From an uncultured virus (IMG/VR IMGVR_UViG_3300006169_000035) (taxonomy: Duplodnaviria; Heunggongvirae; Uroviricota; Caudoviricetes): 64,000 nt of DNA. The notes under the pieces were generated by a model. It saw only the letters and a list, made by a program, of their open reading frames with translations. It did no database searches and was not told where the DNA came from. A program made the position numbers and the translations under genes. Shown here piece after piece: positions 37,276 to 63,742 of the stretch (its first letter is position 1; the number at the start of each line of letters is the position of its first letter). The stretch is taken from IMG/VR virus record IMGVR_UViG_3300006169_000035; one strand, 5' to 3'.

Positions 37276-37294
37276 GGATGCGATACTACGGCAG

Positions 37295-41594: not shown

Positions 41595-41599
41595 TTTCC

Positions 41600-42283
41600 T
41601 CACCTCGGTGTCGTGGAGTTGTCGTTGGGGTCGAACTGGTAGATGTAGAGGGCGCGCTCGATGGTGGAGACGCGTTCGGCTCGCGAAGCGATCTGCTCGG
41701 CCCACTGTGTGTCTTCACCGATCGCGATGGCCGGAAATGGCACGCTCGCGGCGAGCTCGCGTCTCCAGACCATGATGTGGTTGGGCTTGCGTCGATACTC
41801 GCCATCCAGCGTGACATGGTCGAAGTCTGGGTGGTACCGACACGGCTTCTCCGGGCCGTACCCGCGCACGAGCACGGTGAAGCAGAGCACGTCCGGGCGT
41901 TCCCGGGTCAATCGCTCACAGATCGTAGCGACGTAGTCGGTTGCTACGGCGTCGTCGTCGTCACAGAAGGCAACGAAGTCTCCACGAGCGAGAGAGATCA
42001 TCTTGTTGCGCTTCTCTCCGATGCTCATCGAACGGTTGTCGCGCAGAACCAGAAGCTCTACGTCGCGTCGCGCCGCGACCTGGACATCGAGCGACGACAA
42101 GAGCGCACGGAGCTTGGGCTCTCGCCCTGGCACGGTGGGAACGAGGATCGACAGAAGTGTCGAGGTGGCAGAGGCGCGTGCAACGGGGTTGATGCGAGGG
42201 GCGTGAGGACGAGTTCGCAACGGTGCGCCGCGAGGACGAGTGGTAGGGACCTGTCTGATGTCCTTGCGAACCTTGATGCCCAT
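41600..42283 (-). CDS. GT2-family glycosyltransferase
   Basis: LSILVPT, IGEKRN, ARGDFVAFCDDDD, GEDTQW. Confidence 0.85.
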   Translation of the reverse strand: MGIKVRKDIRQVPTTRPRGAPLRTRPHAPRINPVARASATSTLLSILVPTVPGREPKLRALLSSLDVQVAARRDVELLVLRDNRSMSIGEKRNKMISLARGDFVAFCDDDDAVATDYVATICERLTRERPDVLCFTVLVRGYGPEKPCRYHPDFDHVTLDGEYRRKPNHIMVWRRELAASVPFPAIAIGEDTQWAEQIASRAERVSTIERALYIYQFDPNDNSTTPR

Positions 42284-43961: not shown

Positions 43962-43971
43962 CTCGCGCCCG

Positions 43972-49777: not shown

Positions 49778-50560
49778 TTACGGCGCGAACGACAGCTGGC
49801 CGGGTTGCGCTCCGCCACCCTTACCGACGCCGGGCCCTGGATCGGGATCAGGGAGTCTGATCTCCGGAACCACCGTCGGATCGAAGTCGCCGAATCCGAG
49901 CTCAGCGAGACGCTCGGCGATCTGCTCGTCGACGAAGTCGGGGTCGCTCGTGCCGAGAACGCGACCACCTTCGGCGATGATGGTCCGGCCGATCACGTAG
50001 ACGAGCCCCATGTAGAGGTTCGCCATGCGGGCCGTCGACGACGGATCGCCTGGCATCGGGACCGGTGGCCAGCGGCACTCCTCCCAGAACTCCATGAAGA
50101 AGTCCGTCGCGAGTTCGGTTGGGTCGGCGCTCTTGGCTGCTGCATCGCTGCTCTCGGCCACGGCGACGTCGATGAGCGCGGAGAGGTACTGGATCTGCGG
50201 ACCTTCTTCGCCTTCGACGAAGACGAAGTCCGAGCAGCCCTCGCCGACGTAGAAGCCAGCCGGCGTCGTCGGTCCCGGTTCGCAACCGTCCTTGTCGCGA
50301 ACGAAGCCGGGATAGTCGGCGCCGCACGGACCAACGCCGAGTCCCCGATCGGGCGGCTCTGTGATGATCGGCGGGATCGGCCGATCGGGCTTGCCGTTCT
50401 GTGGTGGCGGCGGAAGCTCGGACATGTCCTTCTTCCGCCGCCGATCCTCGTATGCACGGTAGCCCCAGTAGCTGAGGCCTCCGACGGCGATGGCGCTGAC
50501 CCCGATGATCGCCCAGGTCAACGGCTTGGGGTTGCGTCGAGATCTGCGTCGCTTCGCCAT
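49778..50560 (-). CDS. Single-pass membrane protein with basic-NP leader
   Basis: MAKRRRSRRNPKPLTWAIIGVSAIAVGGLSYWGY; Cys-containing ectodomain. Confidence 0.8.
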   Translation of the reverse strand: MAKRRRSRRNPKPLTWAIIGVSAIAVGGLSYWGYRAYEDRRRKKDMSELPPPPQNGKPDRPIPPIITEPPDRGLGVGPCGADYPGFVRDKDGCEPGPTTPAGFYVGEGCSDFVFVEGEEGPQIQYLSALIDVAVAESSDAAAKSADPTELATDFFMEFWEECRWPPVPMPGDPSSTARMANLYMGLVYVIGRTIIAEGGRVLGTSDPDFVDEQIAERLAELGFGDFDPTVVPEIRLPDPDPGPGVGKGGGAQPGQLSFAP

Positions 50561-50571: not shown

Positions 50572-51351
50572 TTACGGATTGCTCAGCCGGTTCGCCAGTC
50601 GCTTCTGGCGTTCGGGGTTGTTCGCGAGGTCGCCCTGTCGCTCGCGCTCGTAGGCACCAGGGTTCCCCTGGCGAGCCCTGACGCCCATCGCGGAGAACGT
50701 ATCCGCTGCTGCCTTCTGGCTCGGCGCTCCGGGTCCGCATACCGCCTTGGCACGACGGGCACTCGGGCGCTTGCCGCCGGTGCGCTTGCGACTTCCCGAA
50801 CCGACGACGCACGCGGCCTTCGTCGACTTCGAGATCCGACCTGAGCGCTTCGCGACCGGAAGCGGCGTCTTGCGCTTCTTCTTGCCGCGCTTCTTGCCAC
50901 GCTTCTTCTTGCCGGCCTTCTTGCCGCGCTTCTTCTTCGGCGGGTTGTCGTCGCGCATCTCGGCGTTCGAGGCGACGGCCCGAGCGCGCTTCTTGCTGCG
51001 ACGCTTGGCGCCCTTCTTCCCGCGCTTCTTCCCGCGACGCTTCTTGCCGACCTTCTTGCGACGCTTCTTGCCGGCCTTCTTCGCGACCTTCTTGCGACGT
51101 CGCTTGCCGACCTTCTTGCCGGCCTTCTTCCCGCGCTTCTTCCCGCGCTTCTTCCCGCGACGCTTCTTGCCGACCTTCTTGCGACGCTTCTTCTTGCCGG
51201 CGGGAGCCTCGGCCGAAGCGGCCTTCTTGCGGCGCTTCTTCTTGCCGCCCTTCTTCTTGCCGCGGCGCTTGCCGGCCTTCACGGCCGTGCTGCCGGCCTT
51301 CTTGCCGCGGCGCTTGCCGGACTTCTTGGATGCTGTCTTGGCACGAGCCAT
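50572..51351 (-). CDS. Lys/Arg-rich histone/protamine-like protein
   Basis: KKRGKK / KKVGKKRR repeats over about 170 aa; GAGGAG RBS; AAG/CGC codon bias. Confidence 0.85.
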   Translation of the reverse strand: MARAKTASKKSGKRRGKKAGSTAVKAGKRRGKKKGGKKKRRKKAASAEAPAGKKKRRKKVGKKRRGKKRGKKRGKKAGKKVGKRRRKKVAKKAGKKRRKKVGKKRRGKKRGKKGAKRRSKKRARAVASNAEMRDDNPPKKKRGKKAGKKKRGKKRGKKKRKTPLPVAKRSGRISKSTKAACVVGSGSRKRTGGKRPSARRAKAVCGPGAPSQKAAADTFSAMGVRARQGNPGAYERERQGDLANNPERQKRLANRLSNP

Positions 51352-51390: not shown

Positions 51391-51693
51391 TCAATGGTCG
51401 AGTAGTAGATGCAGGTGCTTGCGAAACTGCTGCAGGAAGTCGTCCGCGGCGACCGTTTGCGAGGTCTCGGTGGCGTCCCGGAGTTCCCGCTGCAGCTTCG
51501 TCAACGCGGAGCGTGAGAGATCCGCGTCACCGATCGGAAATCCGTGGATCCACATCCGCTGCTGGACGAGCGGTAGATCAGCGCGGAGCTGGATGAGCTC
51601 ACGCTGAGGCGCCCTCGCGGCAGGATTCACGGCCTTGGCCCGGCGAGCCCACGGCCGCACGCGCACAGGAGCAGCAAGTGCCTTGCGAGTCAT
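51391..51693 (-). CDS. Hypothetical protein with basic-NP leader
   Basis: MTRKALAAPVRVRPWARRAKAVNP...; ATGA coupling. Confidence 0.55.
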   Translation of the reverse strand: MTRKALAAPVRVRPWARRAKAVNPAARAPQRELIQLRADLPLVQQRMWIHGFPIGDADLSRSALTKLQRELRDATETSQTVAADDFLQQFRKHLHLLLDH

Positions 51694-52655
51694 CTCGACT
51701 CCCCTCGGGCGAGTCGACGCGCCATGTTGCGGATCCGTTGTTGCTCGGTCCGCTCGCTCACCGAGCGAGGGCCCCACGGGTTGAGAGCTCGAGCCGGGCG
51801 GTAGACGATCTTCTGCGGGTTCGGCTCGGATCCGCCAGCGAGTCGTACCAGGGCGTTAGGGTTCGCATGGCGCCCTCGCAGGAGCTTCTTGTAGTCGCCT
51901 GGTCGCACGTCGAGTTCGAGATCGGCGTCGCGCGGATATCCCTTGTCGATCAGCTTCGCGACGTCTTCGAGCGGCACTTCGACGACGTCGACAAGGCGAT
52001 CTCCACGAAAGAGGAAGTACGCCTCCTTGGGACCACCACTTCCGATCCAGCTGGTTGGCGTGACGCGGATGAGCGTCATGCCAGAAGATGGGTTGTGCTC
52101 CTTCTCGATCGTGGCGAGCTTCCGATAGTAGTCGCGATCCTCGACGAGATGGTCCATGGCGATCGCGAGAGCCGTGTCCGTATCGTCCGTGTGTTCGAGC
52201 TCCACCTTCAGCCCGCGGACGACCTCGGCCGTCTTGAACTCGTCTGCGGTGCGGCCGTCGGCAAGACCGCCGCGTCGAGGCGCTCGCCAACCCTCATGCT
52301 GGCGAGCCTTGACGTGGCACTTGATCTTGTCGTCGCTCATCGGTCCCGGATTTCCTTTGCGATCGGAAAGCTCGGCTTCGTAGACAGCTCCCGATGGGTC
52401 CACGATCCATCCGTTGACCTTGGTCGTTCCCGGCTTGTATTTGCCGAGATCTTCGGTCTCGAACCCGATGAAGTTCACGGGGCGCATGAAGCTCGAACCC
52501 GGAATGACCACGCGGTTCTTGCCGTCCTTGCGGGCGTAGTGTGCAGCGGCCACGATCGCGTACTCGGTGTTCTCCGGGTGGGCGCGCCAGTTCGCGACGG
52601 CGCGCTTTGGCTTCGCGCTCACCTGACCCAACCGATCGCCTCGCGTGACCTTCAT
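51690..52655 (-). CDS. NP-punctuated multi-module protein containing a DUF5661-like domain
   Basis: GLKVELEHT....ALAIAMDHL.E..DYY.KL flanked by KGNP and EHNP; 5 NP. Confidence 0.75.
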   Translation of the reverse strand: MKVTRGDRLGQVSAKPKRAVANWRAHPENTEYAIVAAAHYARKDGKNRVVIPGSSFMRPVNFIGFETEDLGKYKPGTTKVNGWIVDPSGAVYEAELSDRKGNPGPMSDDKIKCHVKARQHEGWRAPRRGGLADGRTADEFKTAEVVRGLKVELEHTDDTDTALAIAMDHLVEDRDYYRKLATIEKEHNPSSGMTLIRVTPTSWIGSGGPKEAYFLFRGDRLVDVVEVPLEDVAKLIDKGYPRDADLELDVRPGDYKKLLRGRHANPNALVRLAGGSEPNPQKIVYRPARALNPWGPRSVSERTEQQRIRNMARRLARGESR

Positions 52656-52667: not shown

Positions 52668-53390
52668 CTAGTTCGCCTTCAGCCACTTCGCGAAGTCGCT
52701 GCCCCAGTCGTCCATGTTCGCACGGAGCTCCTTGAGGCGCTTGCGCGACTGTTCGAGACCCTCGCCGCCGGCGTAGTCCTTCTCGGCACTTGCCTCACCG
52801 ATCCAGTAGGCAGCGCGCACGAGCGATCCGACCGACCGGCGCACGTCGTTGCGTTCTAGCTGGTCGGACGCAGCGGTGAGCTCGCGGTCGGCCGCTGCGA
52901 CAGCAGACTTGAACGATCGAGCCGACTGTGCAGGGTCGTGCGTGTTGCGGGCTCGGGCGCCCCGCTGCGAGCCTCCTCGCTTCGTGCCCGGATTTCTCAC
53001 CTTGGCGGTCTCCAACCACCTCGGGTGCGCCCAGTTTTCGGCGCTCTTGGGAAGCTGCCTGTCTTGTATGAAAGCGTCGACGGTGTCGTTCCAGGCTTCG
53101 CGTCGAGCCGGCTTGTCGGGCACGCCATCTTGCTCGTACTGCTGCGCGATGTAGGGCAGAACCTCCTCACGAAAATACGACTCGAAGTCCTTCTTCGACA
53201 TGGGGTTGCTGCGACGACGCTTCGTTTGCTTCGCCCACTTCACGCGCCAGTCGTTGCCCTGCTTGAAGACGGAGACGTTTTTCACGTCGGGGGACTTCGA
53301 GATGAAGTCTGCGAACGCCTGAGCATCCGACTTCTTCGCATACGGAACTCCGACTCTCGCCTCCCATGGATTCGTGCTCTTCTTCGCCAT
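52668..53390 (-). CDS. NP-punctuated three-module protein
   Basis: MAKKSTNP..., RRRSNP MSKKDF..DKPARREAWND..., KVRNP... Confidence 0.75.
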   Translation of the reverse strand: MAKKSTNPWEARVGVPYAKKSDAQAFADFISKSPDVKNVSVFKQGNDWRVKWAKQTKRRRSNPMSKKDFESYFREEVLPYIAQQYEQDGVPDKPARREAWNDTVDAFIQDRQLPKSAENWAHPRWLETAKVRNPGTKRGGSQRGARARNTHDPAQSARSFKSAVAAADRELTAASDQLERNDVRRSVGSLVRAAYWIGEASAEKDYAGGEGLEQSRKRLKELRANMDDWGSDFAKWLKAN

Positions 53391-53404: not shown

Positions 53405-55684
53405 TCAGCCCGGGTTCGCGAGTCGAGCCGCTGCTCGGCGCTCGCAGATGTTCGCGCAGTGGCAGGGGTTGCCCGCCTTCGGCTGCGCTGTCATCACGCG
53501 CTCGTAGTACGCCTTGTCGATGTTGTCGGTCGAACGGATGACGACGTAGTCGCCGTAGCGCTTGTCCTCCCAGACCGACTGCGCGGTACCGTGGTGATCG
53601 GCTCGAGCCTGGGCGTACTTCTTCGCGAGCGCCAGGTCGTCGAGGCTCACGCCGCCCTTGTCCTTCACCCACGCCTCGTTGAGGCCCTTCGGGTTCGAGG
53701 ATCGAGGCTTGACCGGCGGCGGACCGCGACGACCACCGCGCTCCCACTTCTCCCGCTCCTTGCGGTACTTCGCGAGTTCGACCGCGTCGCCCTTGTAGGG
53801 GTTCTTTCGCTTACCCTCCTTCGTGTACTCGGTACGAAGAACATCGCGAGTCTCACGCCCAAGCGACGTCAGCCCATCGTCGTCGACGAGCTCCATGCGA
53901 TCGAGCAACAGCCACACCTTGTCTGGTATGTGCTGACGCGCTTGTGCTCCACCGGCCGCCGCGAACAAGGCTTTGATGTGGCGACCCGTCGGTTTCTTGT
54001 CCAAGGACATAAGCTCCTCGGCAGCATCACGGGCCTTATTGCGTTCGCTGTTGCGGGCAGGATTGCGGCCAGGCTTGGCCTCCTTCTTCTGGCGTCGCCT
54101 TGGGTTGCTCTGCTTGCGCTCCTCGGCTGCATCGATCGCGGAGTAGACGACGTTGTCCATCTCTGCCGAGAGCTTCTCGTACGACTTGCGCAGCTTCTTG
54201 TCGGAGTCGATCGCTCGCTTGAGGTTCTCCCAGTCGGGCCCGTCGATGTTCTCCCAGAAGCCGACGCCGTGGCCGACGAACGCAGCCCAAGTGTTGAAGG
54301 CGATGTCGTCCTCGGACTCGACGTCGTCGGTGCCCTCAAGGCCTGACGTGCTGCCCGGCGGCCTCTTCATCCACGCGTTCACGACGCGGTTCGCCTCGCG
54401 CGTGAACGCGTTCTTGGCGGCTTCGAGTTCCTTGGTGTGGTGGACCTCGTTCTCCACGTCGCTCGTCGTCAAATCGTCGCGTTCTTGGACCGCGCCTTCG
54501 ATCATGCCGTCGATCTCGAAGTCCACCCACTCGCTGGCGGAGTAGTGGCGCCCTTGGTTGGTCTTGCGACCGCGAGGGTTTTCGCTCTTGCGTGCGGCCT
54601 CGAAGGCCTTCTTTGCAGCCGCGTAGCTGCGGCGTGCGACCGCGTTGATGTCGTCGCCGAACGTCTCCTCCATCTCGGCGTAGGTCTTGGTGGACGGTTC
54701 CGCATCGACGTTGTCGGAGCCGTGATACCCCGCGCCCATTTCAGCGACGCGCCACTTCGCGAGCGGATCACCGGATGCGAGCTCTCGGATCTCTGCCTTG
54801 GTCGTGCCGTACGTGCTGGCGATCTCCCCGAGGTCGGACTTCATCCAGTCGAGCTGGTTTTCGAGGACGTCCTCGTCGGGATCGTACGGGAACCACCGAA
54901 CCTCGTAGGTTGCGGACTCGATCTCGTCCTCGTCCTCTGGTGCTTCCCAGAAGATCCAGCGCAACTCCTTGTACGTGGGGTCGTAGTACAGGATCCCTCC
55001 GCCGTGCGTCAGCGGATCGACGTCGCCGGTGCTGAGGATCGGAATGTTGCGCTCTGGGTTCTTCCGACCCTTCTTCTTCCCACTCTTCTTCTTCACGCTC
55101 TGCCTCTTCTTTCCGCGCCAGCCAGGTTCGATCCGATCGGCGATCGCGGCACAGTAGGCACCGGGATCGGAAACCTTCTTCTTCCCGCGGCGCTTGCTGA
55201 CCTTCTTGATGCAGCCGCTGACGCTGCCGCCGGGCATCTCCTTCATCGGGTTGCCCTTGCGACCTCGCTTCTTGCGACGCGGGTTGTCCTCGGAGTACGC
55301 CGCGCTCACCAGCGCCTCTTCGAGCATCGCGTAGGGCTCTTCGAGCTCCTTGCGGAGGCACGACGATATCTTCTGCCAACGGCGCTCGGTGGCATCGGGG
55401 TAGAACTCGTCCCATCTGCCATCCCAGATCCCGACGCCTTCGCCGGCGAGTGTCGCGTAGACGTCGTACGCGGTCCCCGGATCGTTGAAGAGCCGCGACG
55501 TGTTTCCCTTCGGAGGGAACTTCTTGAAGCAGGACTTGAGCGCTTCCTGGACGCTCTCCTCGAAGTAGACCGATGCGTCCCGTACCTCGTCAGGCATGCT
55601 GACCCGCTTGTCCGCGAGACCGTCGAGGACGAACTGCGCCCAGTCTTCAGGCGCATACTCCGGGTTCTTCTTCTTGCGTGCCAT
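53405..55684 (-). CDS. 759-aa NP-punctuated multi-module protein (putative polyprotein)
   Basis: 11 NP dipeptides in basic linkers separating mostly acidic modules. Confidence 0.8.
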   Translation of the reverse strand: MARKKKNPEYAPEDWAQFVLDGLADKRVSMPDEVRDASVYFEESVQEALKSCFKKFPPKGNTSRLFNDPGTAYDVYATLAGEGVGIWDGRWDEFYPDATERRWQKISSCLRKELEEPYAMLEEALVSAAYSEDNPRRKKRGRKGNPMKEMPGGSVSGCIKKVSKRRGKKKVSDPGAYCAAIADRIEPGWRGKKRQSVKKKSGKKKGRKNPERNIPILSTGDVDPLTHGGGILYYDPTYKELRWIFWEAPEDEDEIESATYEVRWFPYDPDEDVLENQLDWMKSDLGEIASTYGTTKAEIRELASGDPLAKWRVAEMGAGYHGSDNVDAEPSTKTYAEMEETFGDDINAVARRSYAAAKKAFEAARKSENPRGRKTNQGRHYSASEWVDFEIDGMIEGAVQERDDLTTSDVENEVHHTKELEAAKNAFTREANRVVNAWMKRPPGSTSGLEGTDDVESEDDIAFNTWAAFVGHGVGFWENIDGPDWENLKRAIDSDKKLRKSYEKLSAEMDNVVYSAIDAAEERKQSNPRRRQKKEAKPGRNPARNSERNKARDAAEELMSLDKKPTGRHIKALFAAAGGAQARQHIPDKVWLLLDRMELVDDDGLTSLGRETRDVLRTEYTKEGKRKNPYKGDAVELAKYRKEREKWERGGRRGPPPVKPRSSNPKGLNEAWVKDKGGVSLDDLALAKKYAQARADHHGTAQSVWEDKRYGDYVVIRSTDNIDKAYYERVMTAQPKAGNPCHCANICERRAAARLANPG

Positions 55685-55996: not shown

Positions 55997-56380
55997 TCAG
56001 ATCGGTGGCAGCACTTGGCTAGGTGTGACGCGACCGGGACATCCTGAGAGGCAGACCGCTGCGCCCATCTGCGCAGCGATCCACTTGCGAGCCTTGTCGC
56101 TCGCCTTCTCGGCGGTCTTCGCTGAGAAGACGCGGATCATCGCGCCGTCGAGATAGACGAGCGCCCAGTACGGCCTGCCGAACGGCATGCGCTGCACTCG
56201 GTACTCGTAGGTCGCTCCGGGCAGCCCGAGTCCGCCCTCGGGCGTGTCGCTCGCGGCCGTGGGTCGCGTGAGGCGGTAGATCCCGTAGCCGATGAGGCCC
56301 GCTCCTGCGAGCCCCCCGATCGTCAGCACAGCGATCTGTGCTCCGCTCGGGTTCTTCTTCCTTCGTCGTCTGCGTGCCAT
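55997..56380 (-). CDS. Single-pass membrane protein with basic-NP leader
   Basis: MARRRRRKKNPSGAQIAVLTIGGLAGAGLIGYGIYRL. Confidence 0.8.
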   Translation of the reverse strand: MARRRRRKKNPSGAQIAVLTIGGLAGAGLIGYGIYRLTRPTAASDTPEGGLGLPGATYEYRVQRMPFGRPYWALVYLDGAMIRVFSAKTAEKASDKARKWIAAQMGAAVCLSGCPGRVTPSQVLPPI

Positions 56381-56393
56381 GGTGCTTCTCCCT

Positions 56394-56609
56394 TCAGGTC
56401 CCGATGACATCTTCGGGACCGGCCCAGTTCTCGCCGGGGATGAGGACTCCGGTCTCGATCGCCTTGTTGAAGAGACGGTTGCATCCCCAGCCGGCGAGGA
56501 CGAAGCCTCCGACTCCGCCGACGAGTACCGCTGCGCCCATCAGCAGACCCGTTTCGAGTCCGGTGGGATTTCTGCGACGTCGACCGCCGCGTCTGTTTCG
56601 CTTGGCCAT
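56394..56609 (-). CDS. Small membrane protein with basic-NP leader
   Basis: MAKRNRRGGRRRRNPTGLETGLLMGAAVLVGGVGGFVLAGW. Confidence 0.75.
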   Translation of the reverse strand: MAKRNRRGGRRRRNPTGLETGLLMGAAVLVGGVGGFVLAGWGCNRLFNKAIETGVLIPGENWAGPEDVIGT

Positions 56610-56631
56610 GTTCGTGTCTCCCTTCTTCGCT

Positions 56632-56862
56632 TCAGCTCCACGTGTCCGGAACGCCGTAGTCGGGCTCCATCGGGAAGTCGTCGGTGCGTTCGTCGAAGCG
56701 CTTCTGCGCGTCGTCGACCATCTTCGTCCCCTTCTTGATCCCGTAGATCATGACGCCTCCCACGATGAGCGCTGGGACCACGACGCCGAGGGTGACCCCG
56801 ATCGCGACCCATGCTCCCGTGCTGAGGTTCTTCTTGCGCTTGCGTCTTCGTTTGCCTGCCAT
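56632..56862 (-). CDS. Small membrane protein with basic-N leader
   Basis: MAGKRRRKRKKNLSTGAWVAIGVTLGVVV. Confidence 0.75.
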   Translation of the reverse strand: MAGKRRRKRKKNLSTGAWVAIGVTLGVVVPALIVGGVMIYGIKKGTKMVDDAQKRFDERTDDFPMEPDYGVPDTWS

Positions 56863-57386
56863 CACTGCAACTCCTCGATGGACACGCCCTGGCCTTGCGC
56901 CCACCGTTGCATCATCGCGTACCAGGTCGCGACGTCGTCTTCGGTCAGCATGCTGTCCTGCTGCATCACCGTGATCAGCTCGGAGAACACGACCGCGAAC
57001 AGCTTGGCTTCGCCCGGGAGATTGGTCCGGGCCGGATAGGTCGCGCAGCTCGGAGCCAGGCTTCGCACGTAGCGAGCTGCAATCGCGAACGGATCGACGG
57101 GTCCCGACGCCGAAGCAGACCGGATGCGCTGACGAAGTTCGTCGCGCAGTCGTGGCTGATCGACGAGATCGAACGACGCGCAACCGGGAGCGACTACGAT
57201 CGGACGACTCAGCAGATCGTCGTCCGTGGCTGCCCACGCGATGGTGGCGATGGTAGCGATCGCGATGACGCTGCCGCCTACGCCGAGCGCGATCTTCTCG
57301 GCGCGCGAGAGATTTCGCAGCGGGTTCCTGATGCGCCGCAGCGGGTTACCGATCCGCCGAAGCGGATTGCGAGGGCTGACCCTCAT
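56862..57386 (-). CDS. Single-pass membrane protein with triple NPLR leader
   Basis: RNPLRRIGNPLRRIRNPLRNLS then TM. Confidence 0.8.
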   Translation of the reverse strand: MRVSPRNPLRRIGNPLRRIRNPLRNLSRAEKIALGVGGSVIAIATIATIAWAATDDDLLSRPIVVAPGCASFDLVDQPRLRDELRQRIRSASASGPVDPFAIAARYVRSLAPSCATYPARTNLPGEAKLFAVVFSELITVMQQDSMLTEDDVATWYAMMQRWAQGQGVSIEELQ

Positions 57387-57389
57387 CGG

Positions 57390-57887
57390 TCAGCACTCCC
57401 CTTCTGGCGGACACGGCATCCACGAGTAGTACCAGCTTGGGGGATAGAAGGCCGTCGGACGCGGGGCAGCCAACGGCCGCGCCGCCATCTGCTGGGCGAT
57501 TTGCATCGCCGAAAACGGGTTCGCGATCGGCAAGCCGCCGCGACTGGCGATGTAAGCCGAGGCGACCGTCTGCGCGACCTCGGGCGACTCGTAGGGGCCG
57601 GGAAAGAGCACCGGCCCACCGGGGCCATGACCGACCGTCGTCGAATAGCCTGCCGGCGTCTGCTGGACCGAGTAGGGCTGCGTCGGAGCGACCCACGGCC
57701 TGCCGTATGGGTAGTACGACGAGTAGCCCCACGGCCATCCGTATGGGTTGCGCTGTCCGGAGCTCGCGAGGAAGGTGTTGCTGCCTCCTCCGTAGCTGCG
57801 GAAGCGCGGGTTCGCCGAAGGATTGGAAAGCCCGAGCGCCTGACGGCGGGCTTCCATGATCGGGCCACTGCTTCTTCGTCGTCTCAT
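57390..57887 (-). CDS. Tyr/Pro/Gly/Trp-rich low-complexity protein with NP motifs
   Basis: MRRRRSS...SNPSANPR...QRNPYGWPWGYSSYYPY; GGAGG RBS. Confidence 0.7.
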   Translation of the reverse strand: MRRRRSSGPIMEARRQALGLSNPSANPRFRSYGGGSNTFLASSGQRNPYGWPWGYSSYYPYGRPWVAPTQPYSVQQTPAGYSTTVGHGPGGPVLFPGPYESPEVAQTVASAYIASRGGLPIANPFSAMQIAQQMAARPLAAPRPTAFYPPSWYYSWMPCPPEGEC

Positions 57888-58885
57888 GCTGCACCTCCAA
57901 GCGTTCGCTTGTTGTAGTAGCTCTGATTGGCGACGGTCCCGAGGAGCTGCACGGCCGTCCAAGCCTTCCACTCGGCGCCCCCGTACGCGTACGGCGAGAG
58001 CCCCTGCGACCAGTCCGAGCTCGGCACGAGCTGCGTCAGGATCCGACCGATGGCCGCGTCTCGATCCGCTGCCTTCGACCAGTCCACGCCGTTGCCGATC
58101 TGCACGAGCGCAAGCTCGTACACGGCTCGAGTATGCTCGGGCGTGAGGCCGGTGATCAGCGTGGAGATCGCCTTGGGATCGACGTTGGTCGACAGCGAGT
58201 AGGTGCCGCCTTCGTCGACGAGCACCACATGCGTGTCGTCGAGCAGGCCGTCCGAGCCAACAACTCCGAACATCGCGCCGGCGGGCGACTCGACTTGTCC
58301 GGCGACGAGGACGTTGAGCACCGGCACGGTCTCGTACTCTTCGAAGTTCGCCTCCGGTGTCTGGACCATGATCGGCTGTTGGATGTCGAGCATGACGTAC
58401 GGCACGTCGCCGATCGTGGTCGAAGCGCCAAGGATGCTCGCGACACCTTCCCCGCCTCCAGGAAGCTGAGCTCGCCGACGCTGCACGAGACGATAGGCGC
58501 CGTAGCCTGTCGCGGCCGCAAGAACGCCTCCTCCGAGCGCGAGCAAGATCGTCGAGCCCGCAGGGTTCATGCGGGGGTTGCTCTTCTTGCTGTCGGGGCT
58601 GAAGCCAGCGAGGTAGCCACCGAGTGCCGCGCCGATCGGACCGAGGAACACGCCGCCGAGGCCACCGCCGATCGCACCTCTGCGCTTCCTGTCGTCCTTG
58701 GCTCCGTAGTAGCCGCCGAGCGCTGCTCCGCCTGCCCAGCCGACCCACGTCACGACGGCTCCGAAGCCCTTGGCTCCGAGCGCCATCAGCAGGTGACCTG
58801 GGATCCCGCCGATGATGCTGCCGATGAACGCTCCGAGGCCGGAGTGGTTGTTGACGGGGTTCTTCCTCTTGCGTCTGCGGCTCAT
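57884..58885 (-). CDS. Glycine-zipper membrane module joined by NP motifs to a second TM-anchored module
   Basis: MSRRRKRKNP...GAIGGGLGG...KKSNPRMNP-TM-domain. Confidence 0.8.
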   Translation of the reverse strand: MSRRRKRKNPVNNHSGLGAFIGSIIGGIPGHLLMALGAKGFGAVVTWVGWAGGAALGGYYGAKDDRKRRGAIGGGLGGVFLGPIGAALGGYLAGFSPDSKKSNPRMNPAGSTILLALGGGVLAAATGYGAYRLVQRRRAQLPGGGEGVASILGASTTIGDVPYVMLDIQQPIMVQTPEANFEEYETVPVLNVLVAGQVESPAGAMFGVVGSDGLLDDTHVVLVDEGGTYSLSTNVDPKAISTLITGLTPEHTRAVYELALVQIGNGVDWSKAADRDAAIGRILTQLVPSSDWSQGLSPYAYGGAEWKAWTAVQLLGTVANQSYYNKRTLGGAA

Positions 58886-59040
58886 GCTCCACCTCCGAGC
58901 GCTGCGCTCTTCTTCTTGCGGGACTTGTAGGCCAGGATCCCGCCGGCGACGACGAGCCCAACCGTGAGACTCACGGGTAGCAGCCAGGGGCTGACCCCGA
59001 GCTTGTAGTTCTTGCGTCTGCGTTTGCGCTTGCCTGCCAT
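58882..59040 (-). CDS. 52-aa membrane peptide with basic-N leader
   Basis: MAGKRKRRRKNYKLGVSPWLLPVSLTVGLVVAGGILAYKSRKKK. Confidence 0.7.
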   Translation of the reverse strand: MAGKRKRRRKNYKLGVSPWLLPVSLTVGLVVAGGILAYKSRKKKSAALGGGA

Positions 59041-59459
59041 CACGTCACCTGATCGTATTTGTCGACGAGGATCGCGAGCGCTTGCTCGCGGGTGGCCGTA
59101 GGCCAGAAGCCATCGACCACGAGACCTTTGAGGTTGCTTCCGGTTGCGACCACGACGTAGTTGCACGGCGGATCACAGACGTCGGAAGGTGAGCGGAGCT
59201 TGAGGATCCGCCACGCGAACTTGAACCCTTGCGGCCCTTCGACGTCGTAGAAGCCGACGTCGTCGAGATCCCATCCCATGGGGAACGAGCTCACCTCGGG
59301 CATCGTTCCCTCGAGCCGTTCTTCCCACCACTGCTTGGGCTGCTCGATCGCCTTGGGGCGGCTCAGCACACGCACGAGCAGGACGGCCGCCGACGCAGCG
59401 ACGACGCCGGTGCCGATGAGCGCGGGGATGAACCAGGTCGGGTTACGTCGCCGAGTCAT
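59040..59459 (-). CDS. Single-pass membrane protein with basic-NP leader
   Basis: MTRRRNPTWFIPALIGTGVVAASAAVLLV. Confidence 0.8.
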   Translation of the reverse strand: MTRRRNPTWFIPALIGTGVVAASAAVLLVRVLSRPKAIEQPKQWWEERLEGTMPEVSSFPMGWDLDDVGFYDVEGPQGFKFAWRILKLRSPSDVCDPPCNYVVVATGSNLKGLVVDGFWPTATREQALAILVDKYDQVT

Positions 59460-60214
59460 CAGTGGATGAGCCCCCTCGGATGCAAGTCGAGCTCGCCTCC
59501 GTGAATGATGATGATGTTCGGGACGGTGCGGTCGGTGTCCTGCCAGATCCAGACGTCGTACCAGTGGTTGTGGATGTACTCCTGCGCTTCGAGCTTCGCG
59601 GGATCGGGATCAGCGTCGTTCCACTTGTCCGACGCGTAGCTCAGACTGTCGGCTGCGCCGATCGCCTTCACGCTGACGTCTGGGATCCCGACGGTCAGCA
59701 GGCACTGCGGGTCGCGCTGATGCCAGCTGCGGTAGAGCTCGACGCTCTCCCACATGGAGTCCGGGATCGGGTTGCACTCCTGCGGGTAGGGCTGGTTCGG
59801 CATCGCGTAGAGCATCTTGCGGCCGTTGTCCCACCACAGCAGAGGCGGATGGTTGCGATCGAGCTCACGAACCTGCAGACGACCTCGCCGATCGAGGAAC
59901 ACGTACTCCACGAGGACACCGAGATCGATGAGCGGCTTCTTCGGCATGGGCGCCTTGCCGCCGCCGGGCCAGTGGCACACGCCGTCGCTACAGCGCTTCC
60001 AGGTCTGCTTGCCGGTCTGGTTCCACCGAAGCGTGATCTCTCGCCACGCTGCCCGACGAGCCAGATCCTTCTTCCCGTAGACGTCGAGGCCCTCCTCGTA
60101 CGCCTCGTCCCACTCCTCGCGCACCGCATCTGGCAGCGTTCGAGGGGATGGATCCGGGGGATCGTGGATCGACGGCAGCGCGTTGCGGCGTCGCTTTGGG
60201 ACCTTCGAAGGCAT
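59459..60214 (-). CDS. ChaB-like N-terminal domain fused to an unknown domain
   Basis: LPDAVREEWDEAYEEGLDVYG..DLARRAAWREI...W...G..W resembles ChaB. Confidence 0.65.
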   Translation of the reverse strand: MPSKVPKRRRNALPSIHDPPDPSPRTLPDAVREEWDEAYEEGLDVYGKKDLARRAAWREITLRWNQTGKQTWKRCSDGVCHWPGGGKAPMPKKPLIDLGVLVEYVFLDRRGRLQVRELDRNHPPLLWWDNGRKMLYAMPNQPYPQECNPIPDSMWESVELYRSWHQRDPQCLLTVGIPDVSVKAIGAADSLSYASDKWNDADPDPAKLEAQEYIHNHWYDVWIWQDTDRTVPNIIIIHGGELDLHPRGLIH

Positions 60215-60711
60215 CAGTCGTCGTCTTCCTCTTCCTCGTCGTCCTCGTAGAACTCCTCGATCCTCCGTTCGAGCTTGCGGAAGTGCTCTTCCTGCTTGGC
60301 GTCCTGTCGTGCCTCGAACTCCGAGAGCATCCGACGCAGATCGTCGGACGTCGTGCGCTGATCTGCAGCCGCAGCCGCCGTGGCCGCCGCTGTCGCACGA
60401 CGCCTGCGTCCCGTCGAGCGCAGTCGTGGGCTGTACGTGAGCGACTCCGGCATCGTGTCGTCGTACTGCGCTTCGGGCGGACCGTAGTCGCCTTCGAACC
60501 GAGGTGGCGGAGCAGGCGGAGCATCCTTGCGCTTCACCGCGCGACGAATGAGGTTGATGAGCCCATAGCCTCCGGCGACCGCGAAGACGCCGATGAAAGC
60601 ACTGACCGCGGACGTCAAGATCGTCGTCTTGATGAGCTCGACTCGCTGATCGCGGACCTGATCGTCTGTGGGCGGGTTGGGCACGGCACGGATGTTGGGA
60701 TTGTCGACCAT
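60214..60711 (-). CDS. Single-pass membrane protein with acidic tail
   Basis: MVDNPNIRAVPNP...TM...EDDEEEEDDD. Confidence 0.7.
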   Translation of the reverse strand: MVDNPNIRAVPNPPTDDQVRDQRVELIKTTILTSAVSAFIGVFAVAGGYGLINLIRRAVKRKDAPPAPPPRFEGDYGPPEAQYDDTMPESLTYSPRLRSTGRRRRATAAATAAAAADQRTTSDDLRRMLSEFEARQDAKQEEHFRKLERRIEEFYEDDEEEEDDD

Positions 60712-60715
60712 GGTG

Positions 60716-61345
60716 TCACGCGTACGCAGCCGAGCGACCGACGGCGGCAAGAACCGCATCGATGCCCGGCCAGTGGTAGTTGCTGCGGATTGCCCTCTTG
60801 AACATGAAGTTCGGATCGATGCCAGCGCATTCGAGACCGCGTGCGAGTTGCGATCGGTAGCCGGGATGATCGACATCGTCGGTGTCGGTCGGGTAGCCCC
60901 AGCAGCGGCGGAAGGCGAGCCAGTCGAGCTCCTGGCCCTCGTCGCCAAATGGGATGCACCGATGGATGTACCACGCCGCGAGAGCGGTCGCGGTCCACGG
61001 ATCCTTGAGCGCTGACGCAGGCAGCCCAAGATCGTAGACCCGAGCAGACTCGGGCCGCATGCCGTAGAGGCCACGGGCCGCGTTGCCGGAGTCCGATCCC
61101 GCGTTCGGATTGCCGCGGCTCTCGATCCAGGCGACGCCGGAGAGGAAGTCGCCGAGGCCGTCGAGGTTCGTGATCCGCTCGATCGGCTTGGCCATCTCGT
61201 GGATGAGCGCGGGCGCACCCGGATCGACCCATCCTCGGCAGAGCTGCGGAGCAGCATCGGGCAACAGGGCGTATACGCCGGTGCCCACGAGCGCCGCGAC
61301 GCCAACGCCCAGAGCTCCGTACGCCGCCCACTGCGGGATCTTCAA
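60716..61345 (-). CDS. Membrane-anchored lytic transglycosylase (SLT-like)
   Basis: N-terminal TM; VAWIESRGNPNA.....ARGLYGM...L.DP.....A.WY. Confidence 0.75.
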   Translation of the reverse strand: MKIPQWAAYGALGVGVAALVGTGVYALLPDAAPQLCRGWVDPGAPALIHEMAKPIERITNLDGLGDFLSGVAWIESRGNPNAGSDSGNAARGLYGMRPESARVYDLGLPASALKDPWTATALAAWYIHRCIPFGDEGQELDWLAFRRCWGYPTDTDDVDHPGYRSQLARGLECAGIDPNFMFKRAIRSNYHWPGIDAVLAAVGRSAAYA

Positions 61346-61668
61346 CGCCGCCCTCCCGCGCTGGCTCGCTTGCCGCGCTTCTTCTTGTATGCGAGGGCTT
61401 TCTCGGTGACGACGTGCACCATCGGCTCGGCGACGTCGAGCAGGTCTCGATGCTCTGGAAGAACGCGACGGCCAACGCGAGCCATGAGCGTCACCAGGTC
61501 GTTCTTCTTTTCGAGCCGGAACCGCGGGAGGTCTTCGTCGACCAGGAGTTCGGCGATGAGCTTGCCGAGTTCCTCTTCGTTCCTCGCGGAGTGGACACGT
61601 TCGAGCGCATCGGTGACCAGGTAGTGGTCGTCGACGCGACGGATGCTGAGCAAGATCGGATCGTTCAT
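61342..61668 (-). CDS. Hypothetical protein with basic tail
   Basis: MNDPILLSIRR...KKKRGKR; coupled ORF. Confidence 0.6.
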   Translation of the reverse strand: MNDPILLSIRRVDDHYLVTDALERVHSARNEEELGKLIAELLVDEDLPRFRLEKKNDLVTLMARVGRRVLPEHRDLLDVAEPMVHVVTEKALAYKKKRGKRASAGGRR

Positions 61669-62081
61669 CGCAGCCACCCCGTCAGTAGAGCACGGTACCA
61701 AGCCGGACCGGGAGGCATGTGTCGCGGCCGGGGCGTACGTGGCGGAGGCGGGTACGATGCGGGGATTCCCGTGGTGTTGAGCAGGGCGGCTACGCTGCTC
61801 GCAACGCGGCGCGTGAACTCCATCTCGGGACCGGTACGCGGGGCTCCGATCGGGATCGAAGGTGCAAGACTGGAAACGATCTCGGACGTGATCGCGTCAG
61901 CGTTGTCGCCCCAGGCCACGCGAGCTCGACCGTAGGTAGGCAAGAAGCACGACGAGATCCAAGAAGGCGTCACCCGGAGCCGGCCAGCGGCGAACGGAGA
62001 CGAGCACGGACGAGGATGCGCCGGCGCGAGTACGACGTAGCCGTGGCGGCTGCGACGAGGGTATGTGCTCGCGGCGACCAT
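61665..62081 (-). CDS. Hypothetical protein
   Basis: Fills the operon gap; ATG adjoins the upstream stop. Confidence 0.5.
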   Translation of the reverse strand: MVAASTYPRRSRHGYVVLAPAHPRPCSSPFAAGRLRVTPSWISSCFLPTYGRARVAWGDNADAITSEIVSSLAPSIPIGAPRTGPEMEFTRRVASSVAALLNTTGIPASYPPPPRTPRPRHMPPGPAWYRALLTGWLR

Positions 62082-62984
62082 TCAGACCCCTGGCAGCTCC
62101 ACTCCCGACATGTCGATGCCGAGTCTCATGATCGCAGGCGGGGGATGAAGCGTGCTCGAGCCGTCGCTCCACGCCCCGAAGCGGATCGAAGGCATCGGGT
62201 TGTTCGGTGACAACGCGGCGAGGTCGAAGGCAGGCATCCACACCAGCATCTGCCGGCTGCCGCGGGAGCCCGGCAGCGAGCGTCCTGCCACGCTCGTCGT
62301 CCTCCTGAGCGAGCGTCCCGACTGGATCCGATCGAGGTTGTCGGCGTGTCGCGGCAGCCAGTTGAGCCCGCGACCCTCCGCGTTGAGCACGTAGGCGCCG
62401 GAGAGTGGTCGCGCCGGATCGCCGCCGGGCTTGTTCGGATCGTTGCCGCCGGCGAGGTTGAGGTTGCTCTGTCCGTAGAGCAGATCGTTGATGCCACCGA
62501 CGACCATGATCGCATCGCGGGTCTCTCGTCGCAGACGTCGCCCAAGGGACGCGTTTGCTTGCTGACCCTCAGCGGCCGCGATCGATGGATCGTTGCCCGC
62601 CATCGCAAGCGCAGATCCGAGAAGGGCCCGCACCATGCGGTCATACCCCCACGATGGCTTGAAGGGTCCGCTCGCGTCGCCGGCGTTGAACCACGTCGAT
62701 GGCGTCGGGTAGTTCTCGTAGTGCAGCGCCGGGAACTCCCACGGGTATCCCGGGTCGTCAGGCGTGACGATCTCCCACGCTGTCGACTCGTCGGAAGGCT
62801 CGTCGTCCTCCTCGTCGCTCTCGCCATCGTCGACGTCAGGCAACCGCGGGCCGAGCGGCTCTTCGGCAGTCGCCCTCCTGCGACGCGATGCAGCGTACGC
62901 AGCTCCGCCTAGACCGAGTACGAGCGCTCCCGATCCGATCATGAGCACCCACTGCGTGGGCGTCGGATTTCGTCTACGCCTCAC
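62082..62984 (-). CDS. Single-pass membrane protein with basic-NP leader
   Basis: GGAGG RBS, GTG start: RRRRNPTPTQWVLMIGSGALVLGLGGAAYAASRRRR. Confidence 0.8.
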   Translation of the reverse strand: MRRRRNPTPTQWVLMIGSGALVLGLGGAAYAASRRRRATAEEPLGPRLPDVDDGESDEEDDEPSDESTAWEIVTPDDPGYPWEFPALHYENYPTPSTWFNAGDASGPFKPSWGYDRMVRALLGSALAMAGNDPSIAAAEGQQANASLGRRLRRETRDAIMVVGGINDLLYGQSNLNLAGGNDPNKPGGDPARPLSGAYVLNAEGRGLNWLPRHADNLDRIQSGRSLRRTTSVAGRSLPGSRGSRQMLVWMPAFDLAALSPNNPMPSIRFGAWSDGSSTLHPPPAIMRLGIDMSGVELPGV

Positions 62985-63742
62985 TCCACCTCCCAGAAGT
63001 TGTTCCAAGCGTACCAGCCGTCCTCGAAGTCGTAGATCCCGATCCCGAGACGCACCATGAGGTAGTCCCACCAGAGCTTGAAGTTCGGGTTCTGCTTGAG
63101 CGCCTGCTTGTTGAGCGGGTCGGGACACCGAGGCATGCGTGCCTGCATCTCGGCGAGCTCGGCGTAGATCCGTGATCCGATCTCGCGAATCGAGTCCTCT
63201 TCGAGAGGAACGTCGTCACGCGCGTAACGAGCGACGAGGCGCGCGACGTAGCCCCAGGCGGTTCCGGTCTGACCGGTTGGGCTGACGTATCGCAGCGCGT
63301 CGGCCAGCGTGGCCTGTGCAGACGGCCCTCCGTTGACCGGCATCCACCAGTTGCCCCACTCCTGGTAGCCGGGCACCGGCAAGAAGAGACGACCTTCCGC
63401 GATCACCTTGCAGTCCGGACTGATGTAGACGAGGTTGCCGTTCCAGTCGAAGTCGCGCGGGATCCCACCAGCTCCGTACTGTCCGCCTCCCCATCCCTTC
63501 TTGCGCGGCGGAGGACCTTGGTTGTCCGGGCCCGGGATGATCTCGCCCGATCCAGGGATGTCCGGATCGATGTCGGGCTCTCGCTCGCCAGGTGGCAGCA
63601 CGGGACCGATCGGCTCTTCGCCGGCACTCTTCTTCCGGCGGCGCATCGCGTACGCTCCGCCGGCAATGCCGAGTCCGAGCGTGCCAGCGGCAACGAGGAT
63701 GGCCCACTGAGTGGGCGACGGGTTTGGCAGACGCAGTCTCAT
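62981..63742 (-). CDS. Single-pass membrane protein with NP leader
   Basis: MRLRLPNPSPTQWAILVAAGTLGLGIAGGAYAMRRRKK. Confidence 0.8.
   Translation of the reverse strand: MRLRLPNPSPTQWAILVAAGTLGLGIAGGAYAMRRRKKSAGEEPIGPVLPPGEREPDIDPDIPGSGEIIPGPDNQGPPPRKKGWGGGQYGAGGIPRDFDWNGNLVYISPDCKVIAEGRLFLPVPGYQEWGNWWMPVNGGPSAQATLADALRYVSPTGQTGTAWGYVARLVARYARDDVPLEEDSIREIGSRIYAELAEMQARMPRCPDPLNKQALKQNPNFKLWWDYLMVRLGIGIYDFEDGWYAWNNFWEVE

Follow-up and report, generated by a model that had tools for sequence, protein, structure and literature searches.

The window analysed here, a stretch of 64,000 nucleotides from an uncultured virus, encodes on its minus strand (53405..55684) a single gene with 11 Asn-Pro (NP) dipeptides, whose translation is one open frame of 759 amino acids plus stop. 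The start of this target ORF is the ATG at 55684, with an alternative, ATGA-overlap start possible at 55690. The coding signal is even across the ORF (GC3 of 0.68-0.92 in 60-codon blocks), and a search for internal translation starts found no Shine-Dalgarno (SD)-plus-start pair at any module border and none at internal junctions. The modules and junctions, from N- to C-terminus, are:

55661..55684, minus strand: N-terminal leader MARKKKNP; a similar leader is present on 6 other genes of the cluster
55283..55663, minus strand: module A (residues 8-134), a helical, acidic domain characterised by TLxGxGVGIWDGRWD (65 of the 152 proteins kept are homologues; alignment A4; AF2)
55247..55285, minus strand: junction NP-RRKKRGRKG-NP, its NP positions conserved in the relative P0002
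55058..55249, minus strand: module B (residues 146-209), mini-domain MPGGSVSGCI..DPGAYCAAIADRIEPGWR with two conserved Cys, then a Lys-rich run (24 homologues)
54578..55057, minus strand: module C (residues 210-369), acidic alpha/beta domain with TGDVDPxxYGGG and a long helix at its end (42 homologues; alignment A1; AF2)
54104..54577, minus strand: module D (residues 370-527), a paralogue of module A (BLASTP)
54059..54106, minus strand: junction NP-RRRQKKEAKPGR-NP
53801..54061, minus strand: module E (residues 542-628), with 0 homologues among the 152 proteins kept
53693..53800, minus strand: module F (residues 629-664), PYKGDAVELAKYRKEREKWERGGRRGPPP (15 homologues, in proteins of 85-866 aa)
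53468..53692, minus strand: module G (residues 665-739; 3 homologues)
53408..53467, minus strand: C-terminal tail PCHCANICERRAAARLANPG, a motif common to three other window proteins and 56 of the 153 collected proteins

The preliminary description of this DNA had listed the 11 NP dipeptides, and translation returns them in exactly the same contexts, at residues 7, 134, 145, 209, 369, 527, 541, 628, 664, 739 and 757. With 31 Asn and 40 Pro in 759 residues, 1.6 NP are expected, and not one of 100,000 shuffles of the sequence contained 11 (the highest had 10). Codon usage differs from one NP to the next (AAC or AAT, then CCG, CCC, CCT or CCA), with all synonymous positions affected; therefore the signal resides at the protein level, and a DNA-level repeat as the origin of the NPs is ruled out. 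Eight of the 11 fit the junction motif [KR]-x-x-N-P, and the spacers have a high content of Lys, Arg and Gly. Two further observations of that description hold as well, namely that some NPs are paired around a short basic spacer (the two junctions tabulated above) and that the three large segments are strongly acidic and free of NP: they measure 127, 160 and 158 aa, carry net charges of -12, -19 and -13, and contain no internal NP.

The ORF had been described as beads on a string, that is, independent modules with basic NP peptides between them, and this architecture is borne out by its relatives. Six modules have homologues of their own, with stand-alone versions with matching borders found for modules A, B, C, D, F and G. 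Each of the best 150 of 232 library matches spans one or two adjacent modules, many of them being stand-alone proteins of 60-185 aa, and among the matches listed a full-length alignment of homologues was never seen. For module C, 15 of the 23 near-full homologues begin at most 20 aa from the protein N-terminus; for module B, the stand-alone versions have 60 and 64 aa, and NP is found just ahead of the module in 23 of 24 homologues. NP likewise precedes module F in 15/15. Among the distant homologues of modules A, C and D, many are without NP at their borders (A 7/19 on the N side and 10/19 on the C side; C 6/23 on each side; D 0/14 and 5/14), and the NP punctuation is therefore specific to the lineage and not a property of the domains. 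The suggested duplication of a module is also recovered, as the two 'GVG(I/F)W' modules, A and D, match each other in BLASTP (33.1 bits, E 3e-7, 23% identity over 147 columns) and align as one family (alignment A4).

Structure prediction agrees with this division. Modules A and C, each predicted alone with AF2, come out as separate compact domains (pLDDT 93.2 and pTM 0.87 for A; pLDDT 95.4 and pTM 0.86 for C), with the NPs at or past the ends of the fold. Neither the target protein nor its modules match any family in Pfam, PHROGs or NCBIfam. The preliminary description had proposed a DNA-mimic or anti-defence role for the acidic modules, which no family or fold match supports, and a putative tethering of the acidic cargo to packaged DNA by the basic spacers. 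Foldseek against the PDB gives no match at E <= 1e-3 for modules A and C, the best Z-scores in a wide VIA-align search (5.6 for A, 4.2 for C) are below the tool's noise guidance, and for module C the BFVD contains only uncharacterised phage proteins at E >= 0.014 and the ESM Atlas no usable match. Among the INPHARED phages there are no relatives of the target. GTDB species genomes give 0 loci with module B as query and three with module A, one of which is read as real (L015, without tags). The other two were read as chance matches inside an 804-810-aa protein.

The closest relative, P0002 (512 aa), is collinear with the target, has an additional module between A and B, is without D, E and G, and retains all six NPs that it shares with the target, whether junction or terminal. 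Another relative is L007, from a 103-kb metagenome contig and collinear with the window over 54.1-63.7 kb, in which module D is found at the syntenic place as its own gene of 175 aa (L007:8171-8698), 70% identical to module D and equipped with its own leader, MAKKRNKNQGRRY, and its own tail, QLKNKLLR. This separate gene contradicts the proposition that the modules are never separate genes, on which a fusion origin would founder. The spacers of the target look like the N-terminal leaders of once separate genes, a point absent from the preliminary description, and the target is very probably a fusion of small tagged cassette genes.

Leaders of the type M-(K/R)n-NP are not confined to the target, as they start seven genes of the minus-strand cluster at 49.7-63 kb. 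The features of the window that bear on the tags are:

52668..53390, minus strand: next gene, 240 aa, MAKKSTNP.., NP-punctuated too (3 NP and basic runs)
51690..52655, minus strand: DUF5661-containing protein with 5 NP and the tail ..RRLARGESR
50572..51351, minus strand: extremely basic Lys/Arg/Gly-rich protein with the tail ..RLANRLSNP
49778..50560, minus strand: membrane protein with the N-terminus MAKRRRSRRNP, 53% identical to L009:665-1381
55997..63742, minus strand: upstream cluster of small membrane proteins, mostly M-(K/R)n-NP followed by a hydrophobic helix, collinear with L007
60716-61345: SLT-domain protein in the upstream cluster
27755..28783, minus strand: RelA/SpoT-domain protein with a target-type tail (..NPRLHRAARRLANGCF)

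Phage records contain no match to two further proteins of the cluster (62082-62984 and 59459-60214).

The NP peptides are part of a tagging scheme common to many neighbouring, unrelated proteins, which the preliminary description had not noted. Of all dipeptides in the 153 collected proteins, NP exceeds its expectation the most (351 observed vs 66.6 expected, 5.3x), and Arg occupies position -3 at 110 of 325 sites. Out of 1185 aligned cases, 527 (44.5%) retain NP, vs a mean of 17.6% for dipeptides and 21% for other Asn. At the other end of the proteins, a C-terminal tail ..RRLA-N/R-G/P is common to four window proteins, one of them the RelA/SpoT enzyme, and in relatives it has the form LKNKLLR or LKRRLLR. 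Counted by eye, LK(x)(K/R)LL-type tails close 13 of 15 consecutive ORFs in the relative L008 and 7 of 7 in L007. Tag-bearing proteins among the relatives and neighbours contain RelA/SpoT, Prim-Pol, RadC, 2H/LigT and zincin (DUF6782) domains. A literature search gave nothing relevant on the tail strings and no paper on NP-type junctions or such tails.

Clamp-binding motifs are of the QL(S/D)LF type. The window encodes a beta clamp, and clamp binding was considered as the meaning of the tail and discarded, as the tails do not fit this motif.

Peptides that recur at the ends of genes could in principle be by-products of expression signals, with A-rich Lys/Asn codons easing initiation in a genome of 64% GC and tail codons serving as the ribosome-binding site of a coupled next gene. 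Indeed, GGAGG is found within 7 of the 15 tails of L008, some 8 nt ahead of the next gene's overlapping start, and the last codons in L007 (CTG AGG TGA TC) match the anti-SD complement; part of the tail thus overlaps the SD of the next gene in these relatives, so that some of its conservation may be at the RNA level. However, tails lacking any SD (CGC CGC, CAG CGG) still keep the residues LKRRL(L/M), and in the window the SD of the next gene is located after the stop codon. The NP codons differ at every synonymous position, the internal junctions have no start codon, and the Arg-rich leaders are built from GC-rich CGN codons. As an account of the shared peptides, expression signals are very improbable.

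A different role for the same peptides would be in export. The leader and tail could be export or membrane-targeting signals (the tail an amphipathic anchor or a type IV C-terminal secretion signal), the element conjugative or plasmid-like, and the protein a translocated substrate. The window does encode a HerA/FtsK/VirB4-like P-loop ATPase (DUF87, E 3e-14; its VirB4 NCBIfam matches are weak), ParB, an integrase, SLT and M23 hydrolases and many small membrane proteins. IMG/VR yields no relatives when searched with the entire protein, with module C or with the ATPase, and with module B it yields five weak loci, without the tag system. Yet no relaxase, VirB4 above cut-off, VirD4, VirB6 or VirB8 was detected in the window, and there was no match in the 72,556 plasmid records of PLSDB. 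Phage gene families are spread across the window, among them a Dda-like helicase (578 phage records) and phrog_3230 (143), alongside a clamp and many other PHROG families; tail-fibre-like genes adjoin the tagged cluster in L007; and the tails of the window lineage (RLANPG, RLARGESR) are hardly hydrophobic. An export signal is accordingly an improbable explanation.

It is also conceivable that the protein is never processed. It would then work whole, for example as a scaffold-like or nucleoid-associated virion or early protein, in which the basic NP peptides form flexible hinges or DNA-contacting arms (Asx-Pro turns beside Lys/Arg). In line with this, the target ORF contains no protease domain, the 71 window ORFs scanned contain no protease family except the M23 cell-wall peptidase, and no DUF6782 domain was found in the window. 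NP is also found at the extreme termini, where cutting is pointless: the target ends ..NPG and one neighbour ..NP, so that a cut there would release only one or two residues. The Lys-, Arg- and Gly-rich spacers and the neighbouring gene for an extremely basic protein with a target-type tail would suit such a role too. However, ordinary linkers need no invariant dipeptide, let alone one that is 5.3-fold enriched, preceded by Arg at -3 and conserved 2.5 times better than the average dipeptide, and the same modules are separate gene products in relatives. An uncleaved multidomain protein is a serious possibility, if a minority one, and actual cleavage at the NP sites is likewise possible, though the balance is against it.

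In peptides, Asn-Pro bonds undergo slow spontaneous breakage. A further possibility is that the bonds of the target are self-cutting, by the asparagine-lyase chemistry of YscU/FlhB NPTH, RsgI and reovirus mu1; the polyprotein would then fall apart without a protease. Asn-Pro is indeed the scissile bond in the periplasmic domains of RsgI and in the outer capsid proteins of reovirus and aquareovirus (mu1 and VP5), according to the available part of PMC10328401, and in YscU/FlhB proteins, according to that of PMC3189125. The known sites are folded turns with conserved surroundings, occurring once per protein, and need a folded pocket around NP; in the target, by contrast, all 11 sites fall outside the predicted folds, in spacers that are basic, unstructured and of low complexity, and 0/11 precede TH as in the NPTH-type folded turn. 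Self-cleavage in this manner is quite improbable.

The reading preferred here is that of cassette fusion with a role as virion cargo. The target gene very probably arose when small cassette genes, at least seven in number, became fused in frame in an uncultured element that is a large tailed phage or phage-like. In this lineage a typical cassette product consists of a Lys/Arg-rich leader ending in Asn-Pro, a compact domain, a second Asn-Pro and, 9-22 residues later, a C-terminal tail that is short, basic and contains Leu. Fusion has left no internal tails; the leaders persist as basic NP spacers, and a single tail stands at the very end. The leader, junction and tail peptides may be addressing and processing signals for virion cargo that enters the cell with the DNA, and the target a polyvalent or ejection-type cargo protein; if the tail is the address, one tail would carry several passenger domains. 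The [KR]-x-x-N-P junctions may be either cut by a protease, for which the tail-bearing, zincin-like DUF6782 domain of relatives is a candidate, or be flexible, DNA-contacting hinges. The link to the virion rests on context, because no capsid, portal, terminase or prohead-protease family was detected among the 71 ORFs scanned in the window, which is part of a genome. A point against it is that leaders of this kind are also found on membrane proteins, on which they could be a mere positive-inside signal followed by a helix cap. Taken as one statement, cassette fusion plus virion cargo is assigned slightly less than an even chance.

Several known systems resemble parts of this picture. Polyvalent proteins, as described by Iyer, Burroughs, Anand, de Souza and Aravind in 2017 (PMC5512222, in its available sections), carry RadC, RelA/SpoT, 2H, Primpol and zincin peptidase domains and are delivered with DNA, and their processing into units has likewise been proposed there. 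The target is like them in having many small domains per polypeptide, extensive shuffling, solo occurrence and an invasive element as its source; the seven modules fall within the two to fifteen shuffled domains, found also solo, that characterize the class, and the coding element is phage or conjugative. Moreover, the domains of the tag-bearing relatives (RadC, RelA/SpoT, 2H/LigT, Primpol, zincin peptidase) overlap with that repertoire. Unlike polyvalent proteins, none of the target's own modules matches a described family, and MuF, zincin peptidase, ArdC-N, methylase-helicase, RadC and others of the polyvalent repertoire were sought in the target and not found; in those sections of the paper no shared linear junction, leader or tail peptide was found to be named. 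With viral polyproteins the target has in common a repeated, conserved junction motif between units.

The T4 cleavage motif ends in Glu, and the N-terminal targeting peptide ends in (L/I)-x-E. According to the available part of PMC10052503, the capsid-targeting sequence of the internal proteins and Alt of phage T4 is removed by the gp21 protease, the ejection proteins of the giant phage SPN3US are cut by gp245, and the motif of the phiKZ type (SPN3US) ends in Glu. The likeness is that there, too, unrelated proteins have a common short terminal peptide, which serves loading into the prohead, that a head protease cuts a short motif, and that the cargo includes enzymes acting on the host at entry (PMC10052503, same part). 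The target differs in its motif, [KR]-x-x-N-P, and in a presumed address that is C-terminal as well as N-terminal; its N-terminus is MARKKKNP and its junctions end in NP and not in Glu. Unlike in T4, no T4-type protease was found in the window, and packaging of the target would be putative. The P22 scaffolding protein C-terminus and encapsulin cargo-loading peptides are C-terminal docking peptides. A short basic or amphipathic C-terminal peptide on unrelated proteins would similarly dock to the interior of a shell, but the tail motif differs from theirs, and no shell protein is identified for the target lineage.

Pursued further, cassette fusion with virion cargo leads to a more far-reaching proposal, which we regard as unlikely. 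In a lineage of uncultured large tailed phages, an Asn-Pro peptide code not described before, made up of a Lys/Arg leader with NP at its end, [KR]-x-x-N-P junctions and a basic C-terminal tail anchored by NP, would label as virion cargo dozens of proteins unrelated to one another, from enzymes and membrane proteins to small acidic domains. The tail would be the loading address and NP the cutting points, with a dedicated Asn-at-P1 protease or Asn-lyase chemistry as the cutter. Fusion would let one address carry many passengers, freed after loading or injection, and the code would represent a second, chemically different solution to the task for which T4 uses gp21 and a capsid-targeting sequence.

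Should the tags be signals for loading and cutting, they would provide (i) a list, readable from sequence, of the proteins injected with the DNA by an uncultured phage lineage, with a RelA/SpoT enzyme and a primase-polymerase on it, (ii) good candidates for counter-defence among the many listed domains whose fold is unknown, and (iii) a portable tag with which foreign proteins could be loaded into capsids. An Asn-Pro-specific protease, or self-cleavage in unstructured peptides, would be new enzymology. Even without cutting, the case shows small phage genes fusing and splitting at standard junctions.

Finally, 2A-like ribosome-skipping peptides have the consensus D(V/I)ExNPGP. They were considered and set aside for the target ORF, which has no NPGP, only a terminal NPG, and lies among genes organised in the prokaryotic manner, with ATGA overlaps at starts and SD sequences. 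One NPGP, without the upstream 2A consensus, is present in the neighbouring gene at 51690-52655.

The minus-strand frame at 53405-55684 translates as a single open frame of 759 codons, and its ATG comes immediately after the stop codon of the gene upstream, the two overlapping as ATGA. GC3 is even along its length (0.68-0.92 in blocks of 60 codons), and no pair of a Shine-Dalgarno (SD) sequence and a start codon is found at any module border; the frame is one single gene, not a run of short genes misread through. All 11 Asn-Pro (NP) dipeptides listed for it in the preliminary description are present (residues 7, 134, 145, 209, 369, 527, 541, 628, 664, 739 and 757), far above the 1.6 expected from composition, a count of 11 being reached in 0 of 100,000 shuffles. 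Because the Asn and Pro codons differ from site to site, the signal lies at the protein level. Lys or Arg occupies position -3 in eight of the 11. Cutting between N and P defines the following pieces:

Leader, ending at residue 7: 7 residues
Module A, 8-134: acidic, 127 aa, net charge -12
Basic spacer between modules A and B: 11 aa
Module B, 146-209: 64 aa, net charge +18
Module C, 210-369: acidic, 160 aa, net charge -19
Module D, 370-527: acidic, 158 aa, net charge -13
Basic spacer between modules D and E: 14 aa
Modules E (542-628), F (629-664) and G (665-739), then the tail piece: four C-terminal pieces of 87, 36, 75 and 18 aa
Last piece: the dipeptide PG

Directly before the tail, a Cys-rich knuckle (CHCANIC; 53408-53467, minus strand), of CCxxC type in the homologues P0040 and P0094, may be a small metal-binding element.

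A word-indexed search returned only four relatives, the best covering 32% of the query. Exhaustive phmmer against 1.84 billion representatives gave 232 proteins at E <= 1e-3, and among the 150 matches listed each covers one module or two adjacent modules. Specifically, stand-alone homologues include:

Module A: P0020 (168 aa), for example
Module B: P0028 (64 aa) and P0095 (60 aa)
Module C: P0009 (185 aa) and P0097 (129 aa)
Module D: P0007 (175 aa)
Module F: P0094 (85 aa)
Module G: P0129 (191 aa)

When each module was searched again against the 152 proteins kept, modules A, B, C, D, F and G had 65, 24, 42, 41, 15 and 3 homologous proteins, and module E had none. In P0002, the closest relative, the order is collinear with that of the fused protein, but with one additional module between A and B and without D, E and G; all six NPs at junctions or ends common to the two proteins are retained in it. 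Other long strings share only module F (13 NPs in the 866 aa of P0092, 15 in the 837 aa of P0127). Modelled alone with AlphaFold2, module A is all helical (pLDDT 93.2, pTM 0.87) and module C combines a sheet with helices, including a long terminal one (pLDDT 95.4, pTM 0.86), with the NPs at or outside the ends of both predicted folds. The pieces are thus independent units, as the initial picture of a modular string had proposed, and A and C are predicted to be self-contained domains. The suggested duplication is likewise borne out, the two 'GVG(I/F)W' modules, A and D, being paralogues (BLASTP E 3e-7; joint alignment A4). No family or fold match pointing to function was found for any module; their acidity is compatible with the earlier idea of DNA mimicry. 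That role, like the suggested anti-defence activity and tethering to DNA, is putative.

The origin of the string can be read from a relative's locus, L007, which comprises 20 kb of a 103-kb metagenome contig. L007 is collinear with window 54.1-63.7 kb, and in it a row of separate genes occupies the place of the fused frame. Module D is there a separate 175-aa gene, 70% identical to window 54131-54577. It has a Lys-rich leader of its own (MAKKRNKNQGRRY; the fused protein reads NPRGRKTNQGRHY) and carries its own tail, QLKNKLLR, at the C-terminus. Therefore, the basic spacers correspond to leaders of once separate genes, and each NP-basic-NP pair consists of the pre-tail NP of one cassette (leader, domain and tail) and, behind it, the leader NP of the following cassette. 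The same construction, with three NPs, is seen in the gene downstream of the frame (52668-53390, MAKKSTNP...). We regard the protein, with high confidence, as a fusion of tagged cassettes.

The tags extend well beyond this gene. A scan of the window for leaders (M, then at most 13 residues that include three or more K/R and lack D/E, then NP) returned 16 rows, of which seven are true gene starts, all in the minus-strand cluster at 49.7-63 kb. Nine were discounted: in-frame starts that are alternative or internal to cluster genes, plus these Pro-rich or long tags:

8389
15350
40260
41600
51391 (two alternative starts)

In most leader-bearing neighbours a hydrophobic helix follows the leader; at 56862-57386 (minus strand) three tandem copies of an NP peptide, RNPLRRIGNPLRRIRNPLRN, precede a membrane helix. 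Of the 400 dipeptides, none is more over-represented than NP across the 153 collected proteins (351 observed, 66.6 expected), and 110 of 325 sites have Arg at -3. In 2608 pairwise alignments it is retained as NP in 527 of 1185 cases (44.5%); the mean dipeptide reaches 17.6%, and Asn without a following Pro 21%.

At the other end, a related peptide closes four coding-like frames of the window:

53405-55684, minus strand: the fused protein, tail ..ERRAAARLANPG
50572-51351, minus strand: very basic protein, tail ..RLANRLSNP
51690-52655: DUF5661 protein, tail ..RRLARGESR
27755-28783, minus strand: RelA/SpoT-domain protein (Pfam E 2e-16), 27 kb away, tail ..RRLANGCF / ..NPRLHRAARRLANGCF

The last is a candidate injected alarmone-type enzyme. 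The protein at 50572-51351 (259 aa, 4 NPs) consists almost wholly of K/R/G/A repeats (KKRRGKK...) and looks like a histone-H1-like DNA-coating protein. Relatives end in LKNKLLR, LKRRLLR, RLARGxx or LVGRLKF. A loose pattern finds the tail in 56 of 153 proteins; of the 53 among these that contain an NP, 42 have the last one no more than 25 residues from the end. Counted by eye, the tail closes 13 of 15 consecutive frames in L008, a locus of a relative, and 7 of 7 in L007. Tail-bearing proteins include LigD-type primase-polymerase, DUF5591, YunG and DUF6782 zincin-like domains; RadC/JAB, LigT, ChaB, DUF4314, DUF6926 and DUF5661 occur further among module homologues. Leader, junction and tail peptides are a tagging scheme common to many proteins, not private to the fused one.

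Tail codons also overlap translation signals. In 7 of the 15 L008 tails the codons CGG AGG contain GGAGG, placed about 8 nt ahead of the start of the overlapping downstream gene. At L007 gene ends, CTG AGG TGA TC (GAGGTGATC) matches the anti-SD complement, and tail-bearing genes of both loci end in ATGA or GTGA overlaps. The same residues are, however, kept in tails without a ribosome-binding site, and in the window the next gene's SD lies after the stop, outside the tail; we therefore read the tail as a protein signal accommodating ribosome-binding sites.

We consider actual cleavage at the NP junctions rather unlikely. A dipeptide that does not vary, with Arg favoured at -3, has the look of a recognition site, and PMC10328401 describes Asn-Pro as a scissile bond, but known Asn-Pro self-cleavage requires a folded pocket, no protease for such cutting was found among the frames of the window, and NP is also placed at extreme protein ends and ahead of membrane helices. 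A candidate processing peptidase of the tagged set is the protein (L007:9473-10396 and P0027) in which a DUF6782 zincin-like domain, bearing the HExxH motif HENCHH, is joined to module B and a tail; the domain is absent from the window.

As for function, the tags would send proteins to the virion interior, the fused protein then being a polyvalent cargo, a reading we put forward tentatively, at slightly less than even chances. With its small membrane proteins and SLT enzyme, the cluster presumably resembles the ejection-protein sets of other phages. Polyvalent proteins, as described in PMC5512222, enter the cell with the DNA, with processing by zincin peptidases proposed, and their domain set there overlaps that of the tag-bearing proteins. 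In T4 and giant phages such as SPN3US, according to PMC10052503, internal proteins are loaded and trimmed via short motifs, the head protease making the cuts. Polyvalent, capsid-targeted phage proteins are a known kind; the Asn-Pro-based punctuation with a shared C-terminal tail is apparently undescribed.

In our reading, this is an uncultured, large tailed phage or an element resembling one. Among the products encoded in the window are an integrase, ParB, a beta clamp, a Dda-like helicase, DNA methylases, an M23 peptidase and an SLT protein, together with numerous PHROG families without an assigned function. The window, a part of the genome, yielded no match to a capsid, portal or head-protease family. 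A 586-aa HerA/FtsK-like P-loop ATPase (364-2124, minus strand; DUF87, E 3e-14) has a second match, to a PHROG with the annotation terminase large subunit (E 4e-17). The ATPase's phage-record relatives are only two unannotated gut phage contigs; relatives of the Dda-like helicase occur in 578 phage records, and those of another early gene in 143. In L007 the tagged cluster is directly adjoined by tail-fibre-like genes (phrog_13925, E 4e-32). The lineage is absent from the cultured phages, plasmids and GTDB species genomes searched, and IMG/VR gave only weak module B relatives.

An island at 36044-44772 holds sugar- or small-molecule-modifying genes (CmcI-type and other methyltransferases, a sulfotransferase, glycosyltransferases, a Laminin_G_3 protein), with GDP-mannose dehydratase and epimerase genes additionally in L009, a locus of a relative. 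The 560-aa protein at 3159-4841 (minus strand) has a PHB-depolymerase/esterase-like domain at its C-terminus (NCBIfam E 2.5e-12, below cut-off) and may be an esterase that acts in lysis or on the envelope. The distant module B relatives (..FDACVRDNSDKRDPGAYCA..) on IMG/VR contigs L002-L005 (4.8-7.3 kb, GC 58%) stand at the N-terminus of very acidic 525-547-aa proteins, upstream of which lie proteins of 630-790 and 390-490 aa, an arrangement that may represent a head-morphogenesis context in another virus group.
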